A stretch of DNA of 64,000 nt from Candidatus Omnitrophota bacterium (GCA_041650835.1 JBAZKL010000002.1:14477-78476), one strand, 5' to 3'; positions 1 to 43,005 are shown, counted from the first letter of the stretch. The notes: generated by a model not told the origin, from the letters alone. Made by a program: numbers and translations.

Positions 1-41
1 ATAAGGCGATACCATTATATGAAACATTTATTTCGGAGTCA

Positions 42-1979
42 TTGTTTGATGATGTGTTGCGGGATTATTTAATTTGTCTCTACAAATCAAAAGAGCACAG
101 AAGCAAGAACCTCGAGAAATGTCTAACTATTTGCCAAAATCTTAGGAAATTAGGAAAATTTGTTCCTTTTACGTTCGAGTTGGAAGCGGCCATTTATGAG
201 GAAATGGATCGACTAGATGAAGCCATGTCTTTATACCTCGAACTGTCGAAGCGTGAGCCAAAGAATATTCGTCATAAACTAAATTATGCCAAAGTTATGA
301 TTGATATAGGAAGGGAAAAGGACGCGGGAATAAGACTGCTATATGAGGTTAAGGATGAGGTTGAAGACAAGGATTCCTTCCTTATTTTGGCGAGAGCATT
401 CTTAAAGATTCAAAACCATGACGAATCCATAAAGCAATTATTTAAAGCGTTGGAAATCGATTTCAATAATCCGGAGATCCAGCTGTTTTATATTTACACG
501 TTTACGAGCCGAAAAGATAAAAAGAGCGAAATGCTAGATTCCGAAACTGTGCGTGAAGATTTCTTTGTGAAGATTAAAAAGAATGGACACGATCAAGAAT
601 ACTTAGTTACTGCGAATCCTAAATCGTCGATTGCCAAATTCGAGTTATATAAGGAATCCGGTTTGGGTAAGGCACTTTACGGGAAAAGGGTTGCGGAAGA
701 AATAATAGTTAAAAATGAATACAGTGCAGATGATGTTATCAAAATAGTTGAGATTAAAAGTAAATACGTGAAGGCCTTCCAGAATATTTTAGATAATTTT
801 AATATTTCTTTTCCGGACAATAAGGCAATTTGGAAAGTTGAAGCGAGTCCGGAAAGGCTGAAAGATATGCTGAACAAATCGTCGGATAGATCAACCAAGA
901 TAATGGAGATGTATTTATCAAAGAATATTACTATCGGGGCGCTTTCTGCTTTTTCTGGAAGAAGTCTATTCGTTTGTTGGGGCGCGCTTATTGGACAGGG
1001 GTCTAAATTGTACTGTGCTACTGGCAGTGCTGTGGAGCAAAGAAAAGAACAGGAGATTATTCTTAATTCAAACAGGGTTATTATCGAGCCGATCGCTTTA
1101 TTTACTCTTGGTTTTTTAAATTTAGTGGATTTGCCATCAAAGATATTTTCGGAGGTCTATGTTCTTAAGGCTACCTTGGATGAGCTAGATATGGAAATCG
1201 TAGAGTTAAGCAAAAGCGAAGATGCGGGACTTACAACGCTTTTTTCTAAAGAAGGCAAAGCATTTCGACAAGAGATCTCTGCTGAAAATATTAAGATGAA
1301 AATAGATTTTCTTAAAAAGATGCGAGATTCGCAAGGGTTGATAACAACGGGATTAGAACACCCACTGGATGATAGTTTTAATGGCAAAGAAAAGATACTA
1401 GGTTTGCCATATATATATTCGATTCAAGCTTGTGTTGAAAAGCAAGCGCCGCTGTTTTGTGACGATGTTTTTTTTAGAGAATTAATTCGCAATGAGCATA
1501 AGATAGATTCTTTCGGTGTTCAAAATTTTCTTGTAGTTGCTCTTCAAAAGGGAATCATAGCCGAAAACGATTATTGCGATAAGATATTAGAATTAATAAA
1601 GATTGGATACTTCTATCTTTCTGTATCCGCAAAAATGCTTTTTTATTATGCGGAGAAAGACAGTTTTCAAATACAGCCGGGAAATGCGTTTGACATAGCC
1701 ACCGCAATTCTTGATTCAAGAGAAACATCTATTGAATCGCTGCTTGCAGTATTAACAGATTTTATGAAGCTAATGCTTATTGAATCCCTGCCCGATGAAA
1801 TCAAAGATAAATATTTACATTTAATCATAAGTCTTTTAGCAAAACGCGGATCGCCCCATAAAATGATTAAGATTTTCAGTCAAGTTCTCGCTAAGAAGCT
1901 TGGGTTAGCTGAGCATCTTATGGTACAGGTTAATAAGAAAATAGATCAGTGGATTAAAATTAATTACCCAATCGTGTGA
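42..1979 (+). CDS. Hypothetical TPR-like protein, AT-rich; possibly 5'-truncated by the window edge
   Basis: 645-aa ORF called from a TTG. The reading frame stays open upstream to position 1, so the true start may lie outside the window. Codon usage is strongly A/T-biased compared with every downstream gene. The N-terminus has TPR-like helical repeats. I recognise no catalytic motif with confidence. Confidence 0.6.
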   Translation: MFDDVLRDYLICLYKSKEHRSKNLEKCLTICQNLRKLGKFVPFTFELEAAIYEEMDRLDEAMSLYLELSKREPKNIRHKLNYAKVMIDIGREKDAGIRLLYEVKDEVEDKDSFLILARAFLKIQNHDESIKQLFKALEIDFNNPEIQLFYIYTFTSRKDKKSEMLDSETVREDFFVKIKKNGHDQEYLVTANPKSSIAKFELYKESGLGKALYGKRVAEEIIVKNEYSADDVIKIVEIKSKYVKAFQNILDNFNISFPDNKAIWKVEASPERLKDMLNKSSDRSTKIMEMYLSKNITIGALSAFSGRSLFVCWGALIGQGSKLYCATGSAVEQRKEQEIILNSNRVIIEPIALFTLGFLNLVDLPSKIFSEVYVLKATLDELDMEIVELSKSEDAGLTTLFSKEGKAFRQEISAENIKMKIDFLKKMRDSQGLITTGLEHPLDDSFNGKEKILGLPYIYSIQACVEKQAPLFCDDVFFRELIRNEHKIDSFGVQNFLVVALQKGIIAENDYCDKILELIKIGYFYLSVSAKMLFYYAEKDSFQIQPGNAFDIATAILDSRETSIESLLAVLTDFMKLMLIESLPDEIKDKYLHLIISLLAKRGSPHKMIKIFSQVLAKKLGLAEHLMVQVNKKIDQWIKINYPIV

Positions 1980-2201
1980 AAATAAATGCGAGAATAGTTT
2001 TCCGATATCAACCGCGCGGCGGTGATTGTGAATATTAGCAAGGCATTCGTTGATTGGCAGTAAATCTTTCAAAACCCCTGCATAAGCATCCCCCGAATTA
2101 TTACCAATTTGCGGTAACGACCCCATTGTCAAAATAATCCGTTGTTGTAAGATCAAGACAGACTCGCGGGACAGCTGATCACTGTTGCCGTTTTGCAGAA
2201 A

Positions 2202-2242
2202 GCCATTTCCAGTCGACTGGCCGGAGATGGCTTTTTCTTTTT
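2202..2242 (+). terminator. Rho-independent terminator
   Basis: GCCATTTCC...GGAGATGGC 9-bp stem with one T-G wobble. It encloses the perfect 12-nt palindrome CCAGTCGACTGG and is followed by TTTTTCTTTTT. Confidence 0.6.
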
Positions 2243-2244
2243 AG

Positions 2245-2650
2245 GGTTCGACACTTTGAAAAATATTGCGTGTTCATAGATGAGGGGGACATTTGAGCGA
2301 AAAAATCTGTATATACGCAGTAGGGTGCAACACTTTGGCAAAAAAGGGCGTATATACGCGGTAGGGGGTGTTACACTTTTCGATTTTTTGCGTGTTCATA
2401 GGTGAGGGGTGCGAAACTTTGAGCCTAAAAACGCAATAACTACTCTGAGGGGCAAAAAAGTTCCGACACTTTTCGGAAAAATCCGGAATATACGCTTAGG
2501 GAGTGAAACTGGTGAAGAAAGTGAAAATATTTCCGGCAGGTTTACCAAAAACATCGTATGTAGCTAGTAGAGGGGCTTGTGAAGTGAAAATAAATAAAAT
2601 ATTTCCGTCAGTTTTCCAGTTCTTTGCGTATGTAGCTAGTAGGAGGCAGT
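2245..2650. repeat. Iteron-like direct-repeat array (putative replication origin or regulatory region)
   Basis: Three families of direct repeats. (a) TTGCGTGTTCATAGRTGAGGGG at about 2266 and 2388. (b) ATATACGC-N-TAGGGRGTG at about 2310, 2352 and 2487, each followed by ACACTTT(T/G)-N-AAAAA; the ACACTTT motif occurs 4 times. (c) A ~50-bp unit ATATTTCCGnCAGnTTTnCCA...GTATGTAGCTAGTAGnAGG, present twice at about 2528 and 2601. Confidence 0.7.
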
Positions 2651-2656
2651 GAAACT

Positions 2657-2887
2657 ATGAAAGACAAGTGCTTTGAAGCGGGAAATCTCTATCTGGCTAC
2701 GTATTTGCTCTCTTGCGGGTTTGCTATGAGGGGCATTGAGGGATCGGGACGGCTCAAGAGGATCCTGTTTGACGACATCCCGGCCGTTCATAAGGCATGC
2801 GAAGAGTTTTTCGCCGATTCGGAGGCACGCAAGCTGTTTGACTGTTACCGGAGGGTTAAGGATTATTTATTTCAAAATGGAGTTTAA
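2657..2887 (+). CDS. Small hypothetical protein, translationally coupled to the primase
   Basis: 76-aa ORF with an AGGAGG Shine-Dalgarno 8 nt upstream. Its TAA stop lies 2 nt before the primase ATG. The overlapping ORF 2736..2954 is out of frame and rejected. Confidence 0.55.
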   Translation: MKDKCFEAGNLYLATYLLSCGFAMRGIEGSGRLKRILFDDIPAVHKACEEFFADSEARKLFDCYRRVKDYLFQNGV

Positions 2888-2889
2888 AA

Positions 2890-5256
2890 ATGGAAGACGA
2901 GAGAAGAAAAGAGAAGAGAAAAATGGAAGAGATCATACCGCAGGAATTGCTTAAGCTACCGAGCTGGGTTGGGTATCAGCTCAGGCGTAACAAAGGCCGC
3001 ATTGATAAAGTTCCCATGAACGTCCTGACCGGACGTCCTGCCAAAAGTAACGATCCCAGCACATGGACAGATTTCGAGACTGCAGTTGATTTGGTGAGCC
3101 AGCGCGGATATGCGGGTGTTGGTTTTATGTTTAGTCCGCCTTATGTGGGCGTGGATATAGACCATTGCGTCAAAGACGGAGCTATCGCGCCGTATGCGGT
3201 GGAAATCTTAAAGGCGCTCAATTCATATTCGGAATATTCGCCCAGCGGCACCGGCATTCATATTCTTTGTAAAGGCGAGATCGCCCGGGCATGCAAGATT
3301 TCAAAGATCGGGCTTGAGATTTATACCAAGGGCAGATTTTTTACCGTTACCGGCAATCGCCTTGAAAATTATCCGGCTGATCTTAACGAGTGCACTGATG
3401 CGCTAACCGCCATATTCAGCCGGGTTGTAGATAAAAGGCCCGCGGACGACATTTTTGCTTTAATCTCTAAAAGTAAAGACGCGGAGAGGTTTCAGCGGCT
3501 CTATTCCGGCCAGTGGCAAAACGATTATCCATCTCAGAGCGAAGCGGATTTGGCGTTAGGCAACAAGCTGGCCTTTTGGACTGGTAAAGACGCCGGGCGT
3601 ATGGATTCGCTTTTTCGCCAGTCCGGACTCATGCGGCCCAAGTGGGATGAGAAACATTTTGGTGACGGCCGGACCTATGGCCAATCGGTCATTGAAAAGG
3701 CAATCAGCGGGTGTAGTGAGGTTTATGGAGGAAACGGGGCTTCGGGGCCGGTTGCTAAGGCTAAGCTCACGCAGGGCGAGATCATTACCCGCGATTGCGA
3801 GGAGAGCATTAAGGACTTCTTTCGCGATCAGCATGGCAATGCTTTTGTGGTGCTTCCGGTGGAAAGCCATTTTGAGGTATGCCCGACAACGGGCGTGCGC
3901 TTTAGGAATTGGAAGGCGACTCGATTCCGTGATCGCTTTGGCGTACCGCCTAAGATTGAGGCACTTAATCAGGCACGGATTCAGGTTGAGGCGCGCTGTG
4001 GAAGTTCCCGGCAGGTTGAGCTCTTTAATCGAGTAGGCTGGCATAACGGGAAAGTTTATTACGACCTGACAACGCCGGACTATCGAGGTGTAGTTATCGA
4101 TGAAACCGGCTGGGACGTTGTGCCGTTGCCGCCGATATTCAGGCGTTATCAGCATCAAGCCGAGCAGGTGATTCCGGTTAAGGGCGGCGACCCTAAGGCG
4201 ATATTACGTTTCTGCAATGTTAATCCGGACGATCATTGTCTTTTCATGGTCGCCATCGCATCATTCTTCATTCCCAATATTCCGCATGTCATTTTAAGTC
4301 AGACCGGCGAGCAGGGCTCCGGTAAATCGAATAATTCCCGCAAGATTAAAGGCTTGGGCGATCCGTCCAAGGTCATGCTGATCTCAACTCCCAAAGAATT
4401 GGAGCAGGCGCAGATGACCGCGGAGAAGCACTGGATCAGCACCTTCGATAATATCTCCAAAATTTACGAGTGGTTTAGCGATTTCCTCTGCCGAGGCGTT
4501 ACCGGCGAAGGCGACATGAAACGCAGTCTTTATACCAATGACGACGAGTTCATTCGTTCATACAAACGGTGCTTTGTATTGAATGGTATTGGCACGTCTT
4601 TGTGGCGGGCGGATTTGCTCGACCGGGCCATTATCTTTGATATTCCGGTTTTAAAGAGGAGCCGAGCAGAAAAAACTATGGAAGACGAATGGCAACGGGA
4701 GCTTCCCGGGATTCTGGGTGGATTCTTTACTGCCATTTCAAAAGCAATGAATACTTTCTCGCAAGTTACCGGACATGAAAAGTTTCGCATGTCTGATTTT
4801 GCTCAATGGGGAGGCGCGCTGGCGGGGGCATTGGGTTATTCGCAGGATGAGTTTTTCAAAAAGTATCAGGAGTCAGTGGATCGTAAATGGCAGGACACCG
4901 CGGATGACAGCTCGTTTGCCAAGAGACTGATCGAACTCATGGATAAGCACGCAGGCTATTGGGAAGGCTCGGCCGCGGAGCTTTTGCACGAGGTAACCCA
5001 CGATGACGACGATGAGAAAGGCATGCCCAAGACCGCCAAGTGGCTTTCAACAGAGCTACTGCGTATTGCGCCGGTCATGCGTAATGTCGGAGTGGATATC
5101 GTAAAGAAAGACAAGCGCGAGCCAGGTACCGGCCGCAGGCTTTTTGTTCTTAGGCGAACCGAGTCAAAGTCGTGTGAGTACGGGTGTGAGGAAGGTGTGA
5201 GCAGAGGCGTGCTTTGTGAGGATCGTGCGGAGGTGGACAGTGACCGGCCGTTCTAA
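2890..5256 (+). CDS. Primase-polymerase (AEP prim-pol) / SF3 helicase fusion replication protein
   Basis: The N-terminus carries prim-pol motifs: VGVDIDH (hhDhD) and SPSGTGIHILCKG (SxSGxGxH). The middle region carries a Walker A motif, GEQGSGKS, typical of D5/P4-type helicases. The last ~30 codons are encoded by GTGTGAGG heptamer repeats. An alternative start at M12 (position 2923) is possible. Confidence 0.85.
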   Translation: MEDERRKEKRKMEEIIPQELLKLPSWVGYQLRRNKGRIDKVPMNVLTGRPAKSNDPSTWTDFETAVDLVSQRGYAGVGFMFSPPYVGVDIDHCVKDGAIAPYAVEILKALNSYSEYSPSGTGIHILCKGEIARACKISKIGLEIYTKGRFFTVTGNRLENYPADLNECTDALTAIFSRVVDKRPADDIFALISKSKDAERFQRLYSGQWQNDYPSQSEADLALGNKLAFWTGKDAGRMDSLFRQSGLMRPKWDEKHFGDGRTYGQSVIEKAISGCSEVYGGNGASGPVAKAKLTQGEIITRDCEESIKDFFRDQHGNAFVVLPVESHFEVCPTTGVRFRNWKATRFRDRFGVPPKIEALNQARIQVEARCGSSRQVELFNRVGWHNGKVYYDLTTPDYRGVVIDETGWDVVPLPPIFRRYQHQAEQVIPVKGGDPKAILRFCNVNPDDHCLFMVAIASFFIPNIPHVILSQTGEQGSGKSNNSRKIKGLGDPSKVMLISTPKELEQAQMTAEKHWISTFDNISKIYEWFSDFLCRGVTGEGDMKRSLYTNDDEFIRSYKRCFVLNGIGTSLWRADLLDRAIIFDIPVLKRSRAEKTMEDEWQRELPGILGGFFTAISKAMNTFSQVTGHEKFRMSDFAQWGGALAGALGYSQDEFFKKYQESVDRKWQDTADDSSFAKRLIELMDKHAGYWEGSAAELLHEVTHDDDDEKGMPKTAKWLSTELLRIAPVMRNVGVDIVKKDKREPGTGRRLFVLRRTESKSCEYGCEEGVSRGVLCEDRAEVDSDRPF

Positions 5257-5470
5257 ATGTGTGAGTTTGCTCACGTGTGCTCACGCTTGCTCACAGGCGT
5301 GCTCACAAGGTCAAGGCTACAGCCATCAAGGGGTTATGTATTGTTGTGAGGTTTGTGAGGCTAAATTCCTTCTCTTTTTAGAAATCAATAAATATATAGG
5401 AAGAGGCGTATACATCGCCTATGGATGGGCAGGTGTGAGGATAGCGATTTTAGCCTCACATTGCTCACAC
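5165..5470. repeat. Dense cluster of GTGAG(G/C) / (G)CTCAC heptamers (putative second iteron set or origin)
   Basis: At least 12 copies of GTGTGAGG, TGCTCAC or CCTCACA in both orientations within ~300 bp. One stretch has four tandem TGCTCAC copies at about 5267-5310. The cluster spans the primase stop codon. ORF 5216..5536 from the track is most likely an artefact of this repeat. Confidence 0.7.
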
Positions 5471-5663
5471 ATATGCTTACGGGTCCTTCGGAGGGGGTGT
5501 GGGCCGCGGGTCGGGCGAGGCGAAGTCTGTGAGTGATGTCGGATTTTCAAAATGTCGTGTCGTGGTCGTATGGGCGTATTTCGGGGTGTCCGGTTGACAA
5601 GGGATAAAAAAGGCGTTTTCCGTCGTGAAACCGGCTTAAATTTGGCTCAAAATCGCCTCAAAA

Positions 5664-5714
5664 GCGATGTCCTAAAATACGACAAAACCGGACATTTGCG
5701 ATGTCCGAATGTCC
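5664..5714. promoter_or_regulatory. Operator-like repeats: GCGATGTCC x2 including the palindrome GGACAT-N5-ATGTCC
   Basis: GCGATGTCC occurs at 5664-5672 and 5697-5705. GGACATTTGCGATGTCC (5690-5706) is an inverted repeat, and a third ATGTCC follows at 5709-5714. The site lies just upstream of the small ORF and the HTH gene. Confidence 0.4.
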
Positions 5715-5731
5715 TACTGTAGAAGAGAATT

Positions 5732-5929
5732 ATGATCAGGGAAGCGAGCACAATTAATGTGAAGGCGGTAACGCCGCGAGGCTGGGACGCTTTAGAGATA
5801 AAGCTAAAAGGAAGGGGTCTGTCCAGCGTGGAAATTCAAGAAGCTCGTAAATCATTCTTTGAGGGGATTGAGACATTATCAAAGATGTTTTTGGCAATGT
5901 ATTCGGCAGAGAAGAAACCGCTTGTATAA
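5732..5929 (+). CDS. Small hypothetical protein
   Basis: 65-aa ORF between the repeat region and the HTH gene. It has only a weak RBS and no recognisable motif. Confidence 0.3.
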   Translation: MIREASTINVKAVTPRGWDALEIKLKGRGLSSVEIQEARKSFFEGIETLSKMFLAMYSAEKKPLV

Positions 5930-5962
5930 GGTTGTATATTACGGTATACTGGGCACCATTAG

Positions 5963-6154
5963 ATGAGGGTGTCAAATATGAAAACATACTCCATGACAGA
6001 GACGGCAAAATTACTGGGCGTGCACCGGCAGACCATGATCAATTGGATCCGCAGGGGATGGGTTAAGCCCAAGCGTGATTATAAGGATTGGCCGGTGTTT
6101 ACGGACGAGTGTATCGCCAAGATTAAGGCATGGCGAGAGACGTTAAAAGGATAA
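5963..6154 (+). CDS. Excisionase-family / AlpA-like helix-turn-helix DNA-binding protein
   Basis: 63-aa protein containing TETAKLLGVHRQTMINWIRRGWV, the classic excisionase-family HTH signature. It sits immediately upstream of the recombinase; its stop is 1 nt before the recombinase ATG. Confidence 0.7.
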   Translation: MRVSNMKTYSMTETAKLLGVHRQTMINWIRRGWVKPKRDYKDWPVFTDECIAKIKAWRETLKG

Positions 6155-6155
6155 G

Positions 6156-7835
6156 ATGAGAGTAGCGTTATATACAAGGGTAAGTACAGAAGATCAGGCG
6201 CGCGAAGGTTTTTCGCTGGAGGTGCAGAGGACATATCTTTTGCAATACGCGAAAAATTTCGGCTGGGATGTTTTTTGCAGTATGTCGGGCCGGGATATTT
6301 ATATGGATGATGGTTATTCCGGCGGCAATATGGACAGACCGGCGTTGCAGAGACTTTTGTTTGACGCGCGCAATAAGCAGTTTGATCTGATCATGGTGTA
6401 TAAGCAAGATCGCCTAAGCCGTCGGCTTAAGGACCTGTTAGGACTACTTGAGGAGATTGATTCGCTGGGCATCGGGTACAAATCAGCGACCGAGCCATTC
6501 GATACCACGTCCAGCGCCGGGAAGATGGCGATTCAGATGTTAGGCAGTTGCGCGGAGTTTGAACGCAATCGCTTAGTCGAGAGGGTATTCCCGGGCATGG
6601 TGGTTGGTGTTAAAAGAGGTCACTGGCAGGGAGCGCGCTACGCGCCGTATGGTTACCGTTACAATAAAGAAGTCAAGAAACTCGAAGTCCATCCGGAAGA
6701 GGCAAAGATCGTTAAAGAGATTTACGCGATGTACATAAGCGGCACGAGCACTTCGCGGATCGCAGGACATTATTACAATCTTGGGATCCCTTCAAGACAA
6801 GGCGGACGATTTTATAATAAATTCATTTCCAATATTCTGCAGAGCAAGGTCTATTTAGGGATGCTGGTGTGGAATAGACGTCGCTATAACACAAAAGAAA
6901 AGACAAAGAACGGCGAAGGCAAAGGTTACAAGTATGTGAATAATGATCCGTCCAAGATTATTGAAGTACCGAATACTCACGAGCCGATAATTACGCAAAG
7001 AGATTTTGATGAGGCCAGAACGCTTCTCAAACGTAACCGCACCAATGGTGTGGTTAGATTCAGGAATAATGTTTATCAGCTTTCCGGTATTCTGAAATGC
7101 AATGAGTGCGGAGGCAATTACCGCGGAATCACCGCGACAGTTAATCATCGCACCAAAATGCGGCGGCCATGGTATCGTTGTTCTTCCAAAGGCATACCTC
7201 ATATTAAGTGTAGCAATAAATCTGTTACGGCTGACGCGATCAATAAGCAGGTTTGGGATATTGTAGAAGTCATCCGTCAGAATCTTCATGTGCTTGAGGA
7301 ACTGGGTGACATGATCAAACTTAACGCATCCGAGCCGGAGCAGTTGTATGTCGAGCAATTAGAGGATAAGGACGCGCTTCTTAAGAAGAATATCGAGAAG
7401 CAAAAGGGGATCTACGAGTTGTTTTCAGAGGATAAAATTAATCTCGCGCTCTATAAGGATAGGGCCGAGCTTTTGAGTAATGAGGAGAAAAAACTAAAGC
7501 AGGATATCAAGGCGATTCAGCTTAAGATTCTGGATAAGCGTAATTCCGTTAACCTTGTAAAGGCGACGCAGGATTTCCTTTTGAGGTTACGGAGCACGCC
7601 GGATGACCGCCAGTTGGATTATCTGGTCAAAACCTTTATGCGGATCATCTTTAAATCGATCCACATCCAGAATCAGGAGATCGTGAAGTTCGATCTAAAC
7701 GAGCCTTGGAAGACTTGCTATGAAGAGGGGATGAAATGGTTGAAAACGAGCGAAAAGACGACAATACAGGCGATTCCGGAGGCAAAAGCCCGAAGAAGTT
7801 ACGTGTGCTTTTGCGCACCTTCGGATGTCAAATGA
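6156..7835 (+). CDS. Large serine recombinase (integrase)
   Basis: N-terminal resolvase catalytic motif RVALYTRVSTEDQ. It also has a recombinase domain and a zinc ribbon (CNECGGNYRG...WYRCSS), followed by a long coiled-coil C-terminus. Total length is 559 aa. Confidence 0.85.
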   Translation: MRVALYTRVSTEDQAREGFSLEVQRTYLLQYAKNFGWDVFCSMSGRDIYMDDGYSGGNMDRPALQRLLFDARNKQFDLIMVYKQDRLSRRLKDLLGLLEEIDSLGIGYKSATEPFDTTSSAGKMAIQMLGSCAEFERNRLVERVFPGMVVGVKRGHWQGARYAPYGYRYNKEVKKLEVHPEEAKIVKEIYAMYISGTSTSRIAGHYYNLGIPSRQGGRFYNKFISNILQSKVYLGMLVWNRRRYNTKEKTKNGEGKGYKYVNNDPSKIIEVPNTHEPIITQRDFDEARTLLKRNRTNGVVRFRNNVYQLSGILKCNECGGNYRGITATVNHRTKMRRPWYRCSSKGIPHIKCSNKSVTADAINKQVWDIVEVIRQNLHVLEELGDMIKLNASEPEQLYVEQLEDKDALLKKNIEKQKGIYELFSEDKINLALYKDRAELLSNEEKKLKQDIKAIQLKILDKRNSVNLVKATQDFLLRLRSTPDDRQLDYLVKTFMRIIFKSIHIQNQEIVKFDLNEPWKTCYEEGMKWLKTSEKTTIQAIPEAKARRSYVCFCAPSDVK

Positions 7836-8983
7836 ACGTGCGGGATTCGGAGGTGATCTGCGGACTTTTAAAGAATGCCGGTTTCCAGATCGTCCAGGAA
7901 GAAGATGAAGCAGATGTAGTTATCTTTAATACCTGTTCTGTCCGTCAGCATGCCGAAGATAAGGTTTGGAGCGAAATAGGAAGAATAGCTAAATCGAGAA
8001 AAAAAGATTGCTTCGGCGCAAAAAACGCGCCTCGCAATGACACTCGTTGCGGTTATCCGATTATTGGATTGGTTGGATGCATGGCGCAGAATTATAAAGA
8101 AGCAGCCTTTGACCGCTCTGAATACCTCAATTTTGTCGTGGGGCCGTCAGATATAGATAAGATTCCCGGAATTGTTGCTAAAGTCGCCAGTCGCCAGCCG
8201 TCTGTCACCAGTTCAAATTTATTTGAAACGAAAATCTGGGAGACAGATGGAACTATCAGGCCGGAAGATGTATATCATAGCGGTTTTTATGAAGAAAAAG
8301 ACCACGCCTTTGTCGTTATATCCGAAGGCTGTTCCAATTATTGTTCTTATTGCGTGGTCCCTTTTGTGCGGGGAGAAATACACCATCGTCCGCATAAAGA
8401 GATCATGAATGAAATAAAACAGGCCCTCGATAGGGGGATCAGCCGTATTACGCTCCTGGGGCAGAATGTGAATGCGTATGGATATGAAGATGTTAGTTTC
8501 GTTAAGCTTGTTGAGTTCGTTAATGCCGTGAAAGGATTAAAAGAGTTCAGTTTTATTACGTCGCACCCGAAGGATACTTCGCTTGAGTTATTCAAAGCGA
8601 TGGCTGACCTGGAAAAACTGAAAAAATACCTGCATTTGCCTGTTCAGGCCGGCTCAGACAGGATCCTGAAATTAATGAATCGCGGGTATACTCAGAAATT
8701 TTATCTGGACTTGGCGGATAATTATCGTAGAATTGTAAAGGGTGGCGTATTGACATCTGATATCATTGTCGGCTTCCCTACGGAAACCCGGGAAGAGTTC
8801 CAGGATACCTATGACCTGGTTAAACGCGTAGAATTTAACGCGGCTTATATTTTTAAGTATTCTCCCCGTCCGCATACGCATGCGCAGCACCTGGTTGATG
8901 ATGTCGATAAACAGGAAAAGGCGCGCCGGCATAAGCTGGTTTTAGAGCTGCAGAAGGCGATCTCTAAGAAGGTCAAAAAGTAA
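7736..8983 (+). CDS. miaB: tRNA-i6A37 methylthiotransferase MiaB
   Basis: N-terminal KKLRVLLRTFGCQMN motif, comparable to E. coli KKLHIKTWGCQMN. Radical-SAM motif CSNYCSYC and a TRAM C-terminus are present. The first 100 nt overlap the recombinase 3' end in another frame, so the start codon is uncertain (ATG 7736 or GTG 7805). Confidence 0.85.
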   Translation: MVENERKDDNTGDSGGKSPKKLRVLLRTFGCQMNVRDSEVICGLLKNAGFQIVQEEDEADVVIFNTCSVRQHAEDKVWSEIGRIAKSRKKDCFGAKNAPRNDTRCGYPIIGLVGCMAQNYKEAAFDRSEYLNFVVGPSDIDKIPGIVAKVASRQPSVTSSNLFETKIWETDGTIRPEDVYHSGFYEEKDHAFVVISEGCSNYCSYCVVPFVRGEIHHRPHKEIMNEIKQALDRGISRITLLGQNVNAYGYEDVSFVKLVEFVNAVKGLKEFSFITSHPKDTSLELFKAMADLEKLKKYLHLPVQAGSDRILKLMNRGYTQKFYLDLADNYRRIVKGGVLTSDIIVGFPTETREEFQDTYDLVKRVEFNAAYIFKYSPRPHTHAQHLVDDVDKQEKARRHKLVLELQKAISKKVKK

Positions 8984-8997
8984 GGAGCAGGCTTAAC

Positions 8998-9810
8998 GTG
9001 AATAATGTTTTTTTCAATATGCGCGTAAATTTTATGAGTAATTCAAAAACAGCCTTGTTTGTTTTATTCTTTCTGCTTTTGACAAGGGATCTTTCTTTCG
9101 CGCTCAATCTTGAAAAGGTCAAGGTTGATTTTCTAAGCGGGGATTATAAAGCTGCCATTAAAGAGGGTGAAAAGATCCTTGCTGCCGCGGGACACGCCCC
9201 TGATATCGACCAGCTTTATTGCCTGCTTGGGCTTTCTTATTTAAAAGACGGCAATTATCTGCGTTCATCGGATATCTTTGAGATAATCTTAAAGGAATTC
9301 AAGAATAGCCCAACGAGGGAAGAGGCCGGCCTCGGCTTGGGGGATGCTTATTTCTTACAGAAAAATTTCGAAAAAGCGGATGCCTGTTATAGGGATATGC
9401 TCACCATAAAGCCGCAGACCAAGTATAAGGCGGCACTTTTCAGCCGTTTGAGTGAGACAGCATATAAACGCGGCGATGTCGAGAGCGGAAAAAAATTTGC
9501 CGATAAATTAAAGGAAGAATTTCCCCTTAACCTGGAATCGAGCATTGAAAAAGATATTTGCTCATTAGGGGAATTCTCCAGCGGCGCTTTTTACACGGTG
9601 CAGGTCGGCTGTTTTAGCAGCCTGACCAACGCCAATAACCTGCGTAATAAATTAAGCAAAAGCGGCTATGATGCTTTTTCAGAGGTGTCGAGCGTAAAGG
9701 GAAAGCCGCTCTATCGCGTGCGTGTCGGCAAGTTCAGCAAGCGTGATGACGCTGCCGCGTTAGAAAACAAATTGTCTCAAGAAGGATATCCCACTAAGAT
9801 TTCCCCCTAA
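8998..9810 (+). CDS. TPR / SPOR-domain protein (peptidoglycan-binding)
   Basis: Contains a signal-peptide-like hydrophobic segment, TPR-like repeats and a C-terminal SPOR repeat (YTVQVGCFSS...YRVRVGKF). An alternative start at M13 (position 9034) is possible. Confidence 0.6.
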   Translation: MNNVFFNMRVNFMSNSKTALFVLFFLLLTRDLSFALNLEKVKVDFLSGDYKAAIKEGEKILAAAGHAPDIDQLYCLLGLSYLKDGNYLRSSDIFEIILKEFKNSPTREEAGLGLGDAYFLQKNFEKADACYRDMLTIKPQTKYKAALFSRLSETAYKRGDVESGKKFADKLKEEFPLNLESSIEKDICSLGEFSSGAFYTVQVGCFSSLTNANNLRNKLSKSGYDAFSEVSSVKGKPLYRVRVGKFSKRDDAAALENKLSQEGYPTKISP

Positions 9811-41949: not shown

Positions 41950-42050
41950 CGTTTAGTTGTTTATTATCGTTAATGCCGTTTGAAGATCTAATCGGAACGA
42001 ACGATAATAACGGCATTAACGAAACTAACGAAACTAACGATAATAACGAT
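41950..42050. repeat. Tandem AACGAWAMT 9-mer repeats and an inverted repeat in the rplU-obg spacer
   Basis: aacgaaact aacgaaact aacgataat aacgataat, plus inverted copies ttattatcgttaatgccgtt / aacggcattaacg. Confidence 0.6.
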
Positions 42051-42051
42051 A

Positions 42052-43005
42052 ATGTTCATTGATAACGCTAAAATATTAGTCAAAGGCGGCAATGGCGGTA
42101 AAGGGTGTTTCAGCTTTTACCGCGATAAATATGAACGTAGAGGTGTCCCCGACGGAGGCAGGGGTGGCAGCGGGGCTGATATCATATTGCGCGCTGACCG
42201 TAACCTTCGGACACTGCTTGATTTTTCCTATAACAGGCATTTTTACGGGCACAAGGGCGGCAATGGCTCCAGCAAGAATTTGAAAGGCAAGAACGCTGCG
42301 TCTATGATAATTCGCGTTCCCTGCGGAGTTATTGTCAAAGAAATCGCGACAGATTGCGTGTTAGGGACGCTTGATGCCGACCAGGAAGAGCTCGTTGTTG
42401 CCCGGGGTGGTGAAGGCGGCCACGGCAACAAGCTTCATGATGAGGCCACCGAAGGGTTTCCCGGCGAAGAACGCGAGTTGATGCTTGATCTAAAGCTCAT
42501 CGCCGATGCCGGGCTTATCGGATTTCCGAACGCGGGAAAATCCACGCTTATTACCGATATATCTCACGCTCAATCCAAGATAGCCGCGTATCCGTTTACC
42601 ACAAAATACCCGGTGTTAGGCGTTGTCGGGGAAGATGACGAGTCTTTTGTTATCGCTGATATTCCCGGTTTGATCGAAGGTTCTCATCAAGGACGCGGCC
42701 TGGGGGACAGGTTTTTGCGGCATGTAGAACGCACAAAGATACTTATTCATATTATTGATATGGCGGGCACTGAGGGGAGAGACCCGCTTGACGATTACCG
42801 CACGATCAATGAAGAGTTAAAGGGCTATAGCCCTGAAGTTTATAAAAAACCGCAGATTTTAGTGGCAAATAAGATGGACCTGGATAACAGCCGGGAAAAT
42901 TTCCTGCGTTTTAAACAGGCCGTAAGAAAGAAGATCTATCCGATCTCCGCCTTGAAACAGGAAGGTTTGGATGAGCTCATTAAAGCCATACGAAAAAAGC
43001 TGTAA
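42052..43005 (+). CDS. obg: GTPase Obg
   Basis: Obg fold (MFIDNAKILVKGGNGGKGCFSF...) and G motifs GFPNAGKST and DIPGLIEGS. Confidence 0.9.
   Translation: MFIDNAKILVKGGNGGKGCFSFYRDKYERRGVPDGGRGGSGADIILRADRNLRTLLDFSYNRHFYGHKGGNGSSKNLKGKNAASMIIRVPCGVIVKEIATDCVLGTLDADQEELVVARGGEGGHGNKLHDEATEGFPGEERELMLDLKLIADAGLIGFPNAGKSTLITDISHAQSKIAAYPFTTKYPVLGVVGEDDESFVIADIPGLIEGSHQGRGLGDRFLRHVERTKILIHIIDMAGTEGRDPLDDYRTINEELKGYSPEVYKKPQILVANKMDLDNSRENFLRFKQAVRKKIYPISALKQEGLDELIKAIRKKL

Follow-up and report, generated by a model that had tools for sequence, protein, structure and literature searches.

Directly upstream of the primase operon of a small integrated element in a Candidatus Omnitrophota bacterium lies a dense cluster of repeats (positions 2245-2650), and the question raised by this locus is what the repeats do. 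The element was studied within a 64,000-nucleotide (nt) stretch of the assembly GCA_041650835.1 (JBAZKL010000002.1:14477-78476), referred to below as the window. In the initial annotation, the repeats were described as three interleaved families forming an iteron array, which was thought to mark an origin of replication or a binding array for a Rep protein or a regulator. Comparison with related loci leads to a different reading, namely that the repeats are probably tandem promoters specific for a particular sigma factor and not an origin.

The density of the repeats was borne out. The area 2244-2656 includes 43 shared pairs of 8-mers, as compared with 2.6 ± 2.5 in 500 dinucleotide shuffles; the highest value in any shuffle was 24, and the repeats thus exceed the background on self-comparison. 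This stretch is the most self-repetitive 412 nt in the whole window. A repeat search of the window distinguished five direct-repeat families within it, and autocorrelation gave a best lag of 41 nt, followed by 177, 72, 163, 175, and 122 nt. The repeats are therefore genuine, but they are better read as a single family than as three. Positions 2249-2646 are composed of eight co-oriented composite units, six of ~41–52 nt and two of ~72 nt, and a 50-bp family was perceived because units 7 and 8 bear an A/T-rich extension of 20–30 nt upstream. It was also correctly stated that the array is not CRISPR-like, as the units abut, differ by 20–40%, and have no unique spacers. Tandem Repeats Finder flagged the iterons of the origin described below but did not pick up the array because its copies are too divergent.

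Each unit consists of a first block, CGACACTTT, 12 nt of spacer, a second block, CGTATATAC, and, after ~5 nt, a run of G residues. In the array, block 1 has the form (C/T)(G/T)(A/G)CA(C/G)TTT, the spacer is 12 ± 1 nt long and often includes an A5-6 or T5-6 tract, and block 2 is present as CGTATATACGC, CGTGTTCATAG, CGCAATAACTAC or CGTATGTAGCTAG, with the G-run following after 3–7 nt. The unit cores start at 2249, 2287, 2328, 2371, 2412, 2464, 2534, and 2606 (Table 1). The array lies between an intrinsic terminator (2199-2242) and the ATG at 2657, for which the G-run of unit 8 is the ribosome-binding site, and, as noted originally, it stands directly before the primase operon, which comprises genes for a DUF5659 protein (2657-2887) and a primase-polymerase (2890-5256). 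A two-block weight matrix (CGACACTTT, 10–14 nt, CGTATATACG; threshold ≥14 bits) gave six matches in 64 kb, all on the + strand and all within 2249-2650, as compared with ~0.4 in shuffles, and found the motif nowhere else in the window. The array therefore includes six units as counted by the matrix and eight as counted by eye. A tentative solitary unit (5690-5731) was read by eye ahead of an open reading frame (ORF) at 5732-5929 and the helix-turn-helix (HTH) and integrase genes. It resembles the last unit of the related loci L007 and L010, and the weight matrix gave no match at this position.

A scan of 185,579 species genomes for the primase yielded 30 loci, mostly in genome bins of Candidatus Omnitrophota, and most relatives with the DUF5659-primase genes bear the same kind of array, with 1 to ~13 units. 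In a profile of 83 units, block 1 has an invariant CA and TTT and block 2 an invariant GTA; near-invariant positions are C4, A5, and T7-T9 in block 1 and G23, T24, A25, and A29 in block 2. Of 95 units, 86 have a gap of 12 ± 1 nt between the blocks. All array units point at the DUF5659-primase genes. Reversed units are located before HTH-integrase operons that lie on the reverse strand (L006, L026, L015, L016, L031, and L032), and their block 2 is as far from the ribosome-binding site and start codon as that of the forward units. In loci that also encode a sigma factor (sigma-plus loci; see below), single units end 0–25 nt before the ribosome-binding site and start codon, and the CGTA core is retained in all of them. 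The G-run is positioned ~7 nt after CGTATA, at the expected transcription start. It is distinct from the ribosome-binding site in L003, L007, L010, L015, and L016, where a separate one follows. Units are also found beside unrelated replication genes, i.e. those for a DnaG-type primase, for PDDEXK/AAA_24/DUF669 proteins, and for SNF2 together with Prim-Pol/D5_N. The geometry of the unit can be written as CGACAC, N15, CGTA, N7-8, purine, with the -10-like block 12 nt after CGACACTTT. As judged by sequence, the units appear to possess the defining features of a promoter for a sigma factor of the extracytoplasmic function (ECF) type, and dependence on such a sigma factor is predicted.

Other interpretations of the unit were considered and rejected. 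A scan for sigma-70 promoters revealed no canonical promoter within the units, and the motif is absent from the other 60 kb of the window, which speaks against a promoter of the host housekeeping or Bacteroidetes type. Unlike the units, the small RNA next to the array has an ordinary promoter (TTGTCA/TAAGAT). A promoter for a T7-like single-subunit polymerase, suggested by the likeness of TCACCTATGGGAGG to TCACTATAGGGAGA, was rejected since a conserved block is located a further 20 nt upstream and since a sigma factor is the protein linked to the units. The possibility that the units encode small peptides was rejected because neither start codons nor reading frames are conserved.

The linked sigma factor is exemplified by L006 and L026, in which a protein of 190 amino acids (aa) with Sigma70_r2 and r4_2 domains is encoded just upstream of a single unit. 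The protein passes the curated cut-off of TIGR02937 (sigma70-ECF superfamily), and 56 homologues were found in databases, some of them on long contigs. In over 20 related elements, a unit begins 3–12 nt past the stop codon of the sigma gene, and the same distance was observed in six of the seven distinct loci looked up from the protein search. The linkage holds for sigma homologues that are only 41–50% identical and accompany unrelated replication genes (L032-L035, L037, L038, and L061). In L035, L037, and the viral contig L061, an extra unit is located before the sigma operon, ahead of its small first gene; in these relatives, though not in the window, this arrangement would correspond to the autoregulation typical of ECF sigma factors. 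In L037, a reversed unit faces the integrase. All eight sigma matches looked up, which represent seven distinct loci, lie in a mobile element or prophage, most with a serine or tyrosine integrase gene beside them, and the sigma gene is the first of, or is included in, an early operon. L034, L035, and L037 are prophage-like. The replication genes of the sigma-bearing elements comprise those for a DnaG-type primase, PDDEXK/AAA_24/DUF669/Mom, an SNF2 helicase with Prim-Pol/D5_N, and ParA.

Metagenome contigs were further scanned with the motif only (CGACACTTT, N11-13, GTATATAYG), which returned 88 loci. A gene of the sigma family lies immediately upstream of the match in 17 of them, as classified by sigma, primase, and DUF5659 only. 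Another ~10 are sigma-less tandem arrays, nine of which precede DUF5659-primase genes and one (L101) is cut at the contig end. The remaining loci are mostly isolated single matches, possibly due to chance or truncated contigs, and a few have 2–4 matches with no linked gene detected. Neither the 64-kb window nor any locus with an array was found to encode a member of the family when searched with a profile of 52 sigma homologues. Scans of viral contigs for class-B units (GTAATCACC, GCGTGTWCATA) produced coincidences only, mostly in a conserved stretch common to many viral contigs.

Some sigma-plus loci have repeats of their own upstream of the sigma gene. L006 includes five inverted repeats AGACACC, N13-15, GGTGTCT at ~120-nt spacing (4545-5050), and tandem or inverted CCTCCGTGATT motifs are present in L032 (5880-5925) and L034 (5915-5940); control of the sigma gene is the probable role of these repeats. 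A gene for a conserved protein of ~90 aa with the N-terminus M..VC(K/R)FKF follows the sigma gene, in the position of DUF5659, in 14 of 22 sigma-plus loci (Table 1).

The number of units differs strictly between loci with and without the sigma gene. Among the non-redundant DUF5659-primase loci with enough upstream sequence, exactly one unit precedes DUF5659 in all sigma-plus loci (9/9), whereas all sigma-less loci (24/24, the window included) have 2–11 matrix-detectable units (Mann-Whitney p = 1e-5; false-positive rate of the matrix 0.009 per kb). When DUF5659 was placed in a neighbour-joining tree, eight of the sigma-plus loci grouped into a single clade and the ninth was an outlier, and the sigma-less arrays were distributed over at least two deep clades flanking the sigma-plus clade on both sides. 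Although the loci are not independent, more than a single evolutionary event therefore underlies the association. In collinear arrays, the last 195 nt are 80–93% identical, as compared with 61–81% at adjacent third-codon positions, and the order of the unit classes is kept between elements, e.g. B B B F A D B B A C C. The array appears to be under purifying selection. Given its identity above that of third-codon positions and the retained class order, the units are individually maintained and are not mere redundant copies.

A working for the array can be proposed that proceeds from the unit anatomy, the orientation rule, the position before ribosome-binding sites, the sigma linkage, the one-versus-many split, and the lack of a sigma gene in the window. 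Eight tandem co-oriented promoters would fire into the DUF5659-primase operon, each composed of a -35-like CGACAC(TTT), a -10-like block from the CGTA located 15 nt after CGACAC, and a start in the G-run ~7 nt further on, and each would be read by RNA polymerase carrying the mobile-element ECF-type sigma factor. The terminator upstream (2199-2242) would keep read-through out of the array, and the replication operon would be silent until the matching sigma factor arrives in trans. Supply of the sigma factor in trans by a helper is a tentative part of the proposal, its chance being put at even or somewhat below. The source would be a co-resident or incoming sigma-encoding element or phage, the host being less likely; a sigma-encoding element or prophage is the likely source because every examined member of the family sits on such an element. 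Multiplication of the promoters would raise the capture of scarce foreign sigma-RNA polymerase and offset the lack of a sigma gene in cis, and the primase, once made, would act at the origin at 5258-5480. The strict rule of one versus many units (9/9 against 24/24) makes this hypothesis of dosage or competition directly testable.

It is conceivable, though rather doubtful, that the sigma-less elements are satellites (hyperparasites) of sigma-encoding elements or temperate phages, for which the array would be an antenna tuned to the helper's early sigma factor that times their own replication. Like phage satellites, the element in the window is small and integrative and has an integrase, an initiator, and an origin without virion genes. 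Genes for virion proteins, capsid redirection or packaging hijack were not found among the element ORFs by PHROG or Pfam, its remaining small ORFs match no phage structural family, and megablast of positions 1-8000 against a phage collection gave no match. The array on a multicopy replicating element could further act as a sponge that withholds the sigma factor from the helper, and the individually conserved unit classes could be adapted to the sigma variants made by different helpers. One metagenome sample (Ga0163200) contains both a sigma-plus locus (L092) and the sigma-less array L101 with nine units; this co-occurrence is compatible with helper dependence but is not a demonstration of it.

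Several observations weigh against the units being promoters of this kind that act in sum. The canonical ECF 'AAC' is missing from the -35 block (GACAC), and the blocks are separated by 1–2 nt less than in promoters of the sigma-W type. As the 41-nt period is within one polymerase footprint, neighbouring units cannot all be occupied, and additivity is not guaranteed. None of the single promoters seen in sigma-plus loci was of class B or D/F, and the one-versus-many split is partly phylogenetic, with the sigma-plus loci confined to one clade and an outlier. The spacers, moreover, are conserved beyond the needs of a promoter. A5/T5 tracts are present in 61 of 111 distinct array-unit spacers (55%) as compared with 3 of 32 single-unit spacers (9%), and in arrays they are in helical phase with the 41-nt period, which suggests DNA curvature or an extra binding factor.

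The latter observations bear on an alternative in which the units are promoters but have been multiplied for the benefit of a repressor or activator with binding sites in the unit-specific spacers or the CGTATATACG palindrome, the array being a platform for cooperative silencing or activation. DUF5659, the small HTH protein or a host nucleoid protein would be candidate binders. Such a platform would account for the enrichment and phasing of the A5/T5 tracts, for the conservation of spacers and whole units above synonymous sites, and for the order in which distinct unit classes are held between elements; CGTATATACG is a perfect palindrome, and DUF5659 always follows arrays. However, the palindrome is missing from classes B, C, and D, single units occur without DUF5659 in L032, L034, L035, and L037, the model of DUF5659 has no match to a DNA-binding fold, and no candidate binder is common to all array loci. 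An operator array is therefore considered unlikely.

The same promoters might instead be read by a stress sigma factor of the host, in which case the element would replicate on a host stress signal. ECF sigma factors are typically host stress regulators, and the view of the host genome is limited to the 64 kb of the window. Against this, the sigma gene is part of a mobile element or prophage in each of the eight matches looked up, and the window includes no member of the sigma family. The involvement of a host sigma factor is thus quite improbable.

The reading as an iteron array, in which the DNA would be opened at the repeats by the primase-polymerase or another initiator bound to them, was suggested by the dense repeats next to the primase operon. 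It would also suit the 41-nt period, which is close to four helical turns, and an A/T-rich patch at 2576-2615, which has the lowest 40-nt GC content in the array (25%) and lies inside the extension of unit 8. A complete iteron structure is, however, located directly after the primase stop codon. There, 5258-5480 includes in order four direct GCTCAC iterons at 10–12 nt spacing, two copies of TGTGAGG, 40 nt with a GC content of 20% (5362-5401), and inverted CCTCACA/GCTCACA. The same layout of iterons and AT-rich stretch was found 3' of the primase gene in 15 of 15 relatives examined, including L004 and L005 that have no upstream array, and the heptamer covaries with the primase lineage (GCTCAC, CCTCAC/ACTCAC, CTTCAC, GTTCAC/GGTCAC). 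A search of positions 1-9000 against Rfam at E values up to 1 gave no relevant match and one chance microRNA match in the origin region. The stretch 5258-5480 is probably the real origin, which would be behind the primase gene and not before it.

Because this region has the anatomy of an iteron origin, an origin reading of 2245-2650 is unnecessary. Iterons should be specific to their cognate initiator, but the array is absent from L004 and L005, which encode the same primase family, and nine sigma-plus relatives with that family have one unit each, while further units accompany unrelated replication proteins. Iterons should likewise be independent of gene direction, but the units are co-oriented with the downstream gene and also precede integrase/HTH operons. 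The origin reading is thus largely refuted and retains very little probability. The other option, a binding array for a regulator, survives in spirit, as the units are candidate sites for sigma-RNA polymerase.

A role at the RNA level, as a structured leader, an array of small RNAs or P4-like immunity targets of the upstream small RNA, might be envisaged because a small RNA gene is located immediately upstream of the array and, in P4, repeated leader sequences before the primase operon are targets of the immunity RNA. Yet the array as RNA gives no fold signal (z = -0.1) and no Rfam match, complementarity between the small RNA and the units does not exceed 5 nt by eye and includes nothing beyond the UCGA palindrome, and units are also present at loci that have another RNA or the sigma gene in place of the small RNA, which makes such a role highly improbable. 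A centromere-like partition site comparable to sopC of plasmid F (12 x 43 bp), with its similar unit length and given the internal palindrome of some units, is hardly credible, as there are no ParA/ParB-type genes in the element and no partition gene in more than 20 elements, and single units stand before genes with their orientation set by gene direction.

The features of the locus are collected in Table 1. The order in the element is small RNA, array, DUF5659, primase-polymerase, origin, small ORFs, HTH protein, and serine integrase; there are three small ORFs between the origin and the integrase gene, one of which encodes the HTH protein.

Table 1. Features of the integrated element and of related loci. 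Positions are those of the window unless a locus is named; array units are putative promoters.
Feature	Position	Strand	Description or basis
Whole integrated element, ~5.75 kb, Candidatus Omnitrophota	2093..7838	+	Limits of homology to related loci
Sigma-70-like promoter of small RNA	2126..2153	+	TTGTCA, 16 nt, TAAGAT; consensus scan
Two-hairpin small RNA candidate	2158..2242	+	Intrinsic terminator, stem 2199-2234 and T-run; terminator scan
Unit 1, class B	2249..2287	+	CGACACTTT, GAAAAATATTG, CGTGTTCATAG, ATGAGGGG
Unit 2, class A	2287..2325	+	GGACATTTG ... CTGTATATACGC, AGTAGGG; direct-repeat family D1
Unit 3, class A	2328..2368	+	CAACACTTT, GGCAAAAAAGGG, CGTATATACGC, GGTAGGGGG; direct-repeat family D1
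Unit 4, class B	2371..2409	+	TTACACTTT, TCGATTTTTTG, CGTGTTCATAG, GTGAGGGG; direct-repeat family D2
Unit 5, class D	2412..2452	+	CGAAACTTT, GAGCCTAAAAA, CGCAATAACTAC, TCTGAGGGG; followed by A-rich linker 2453-2463
Unit 6, class A	2464..2503	+	CGACACTTT, TCGGAAAAATCCG, GAATATACGC, TTAGGGAG; direct-repeat family D1
Unit 7, class C	2512..2575	+	A/T-rich extension 2512-2533, core 2534-2575: CGGCAGGTTT ... CGTATGTAGCTAG, TAGAGGGG; families D3, D4
Unit 8, class C	2584..2646	+	Extension 2584-2605, core 2606-2646: CGTCAGTTTT ... CGTATGTAGCTAG, TAGGAGG; families D3, D4
DUF5659 protein, 76 aa	2657..2887	+	First gene after array; Pfam PF18903
Primase-polymerase, 788 aa	2890..5256	+	NrS-1-type helix-bundle domain; phage DNA primase families
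Probable true origin	5258..5480	.	Iterons and AT-rich stretch, directly after primase stop
Tentative solitary weak unit	5690..5731	+	CCGGACATTTG ... GTCCTAC, TGTAGAAGAG; low confidence; read by eye
Small HTH protein	5963..6154	+	MerR/HTH_17-like, excisionase-type; immediately before integrase
Large serine recombinase (integrase)	6156..7835	+	Family matches
~90-aa protein after sigma	L032 6665-6940, L034 6640-6909, L035 4024-4314, L037 6044-6316		No family assignment

The ends of the element were located by blastn, in which homology with ~10 related loci begins at 2093-2096 and extends to 7836-7851. The insertion site is the 5' end of miaB, and the right flank from 7736 on consists of host housekeeping genes (miaB, SPOR, miaA, hflX, and clpB). 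The genes of the window are all on the + strand. The integrase gene ends at 7835, within the first ~100 nt of the miaB frame (7736-8983). Since homology to related elements also breaks off at 7836-7851, the 5' end of miaB seems to be contributed by the element. The relatives L004, L005, L018, L021, and L022 likewise abut miaB. A tRNA scan found no tRNA gene, and hence there is no tRNA attachment site. To the left of the element, DNA of low GC content (0.35–0.37) at 42-1979 encodes a 645-aa TPR and PIN protein (PF20698, TPR-GreAB-C-PIN system). The same gene is also located left of the element in L022, and it may belong to a defence island or be a conserved flank. In the window, its 3' end is overlapped by a small ORF on the reverse strand (1905-2075). 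Far from the element, at 41996-42053, the tandem repeat AACGATAAT x6 (periods of 18 and 27 are also possible) lies just before an ORF starting at 42052 and is the third most repetitive spot of the window.

The small RNA candidate at the left end of the element is ~85 nt long with a fold z of -3.4. Its stems are conserved over 10 loci, with one-sided changes and one compensatory change, and its promoter block is conserved in 10 loci. The RNA is swapped for a different RNA of ~130 nt in L007 and L024 and for the sigma gene in other relatives, and an upstream block, GTAGTAACGACC...TTG, is duplicated in several loci. DUF5659 has 47 homologues, all of them close. A confident AlphaFold model (predicted local distance difference test score, pLDDT, 86) showed a beta-alpha-beta-beta-alpha-alpha topology, for which Foldseek gave no PDB match below E = 0.3. 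The protein has no sequence match in PDB and belongs to no PHROG or NCBIfam family.

These data, drawn from the sequences of Omnitrophota and their neighbours, point to a mobile-element sigma family, a candidate promoter motif (CGACACTTT, N12, CGTATATAC, N5, GGG), and a group of ~6-kb elements with a primase-polymerase and a serine integrase. The motif can be used for finding regulons and helpers in metagenomes, and the annotation of the locus is corrected in that the probable origin is placed after the primase gene and not before it. If the proposal is true, dependence on another element would be purely cis-acting, having come about by loss of the sigma gene and multiplication of the promoter. 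No description was found in the literature searched of DUF5659, of these Omnitrophota elements, of satellites with sigma factors or of tandem arrays of ECF promoters.

In staphylococcal pathogenicity islands, the iteron origin is located 3' of the initiator gene. The array at 2245-2650 does not match this arrangement, whereas 5258-5480 does: the primase gene is followed directly by an AT-rich stretch with short iterons of both orientations on its flanks, and these iterons covary with the primase.

The ECF promoter of the sigma-W type in Bacillus subtilis has the form TGAAAC, N16, CGTA. The array units are similar to ECF promoters in having two short blocks at a fixed spacing, a CGT(A) core at -10, a -35 block that is AC and then T-rich, and a predicted start ~7 nt past the -10 block. 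As in ECF systems, the sigma gene is beside its target promoter and, in L035, L037, and L061, is itself preceded by one. The units differ in a -35 block of CGACAC, not GAAC/AAC, in a spacing of 15 nt instead of 16–17, and in their multiplication 2–13 fold in sigma-less elements. The sigma factor here is encoded on mobile elements and not in the host core genome, and no anti-sigma gene was noticed.

Tandem promoters are known as T7 A1/A2/A3, in the SPO1 early region, and as rRNA P1/P2, where two or three promoters ~100 bp or more apart are served by the main sigma factor of the host. The array shares with them several co-oriented promoters leading into one operon in an early or replication region. 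It differs in having eight units (up to 13 in relatives) at a 41-nt period, which is below one polymerase footprint, and in that it appears to use an alternative sigma factor absent from the element.

The closest parallel to the proposed dependence on a helper is transcriptional piracy. The late promoters of P4 are activated by Ogr of P2. RinA, an activator of staphylococcal phages, is described as controlling the phage late (packaging) operon and hence virulence gene transfer (PMC3152322). The element differs from these systems in that the factor would be a sigma factor, the sensor would be a multiplied promoter, the helper is hypothetical, and its 5.75 kb include no genes for capsid hijack or packaging. 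It resembles them in being an integrative replicon free of virion genes, whose key operon would depend on a foreign transcription factor.

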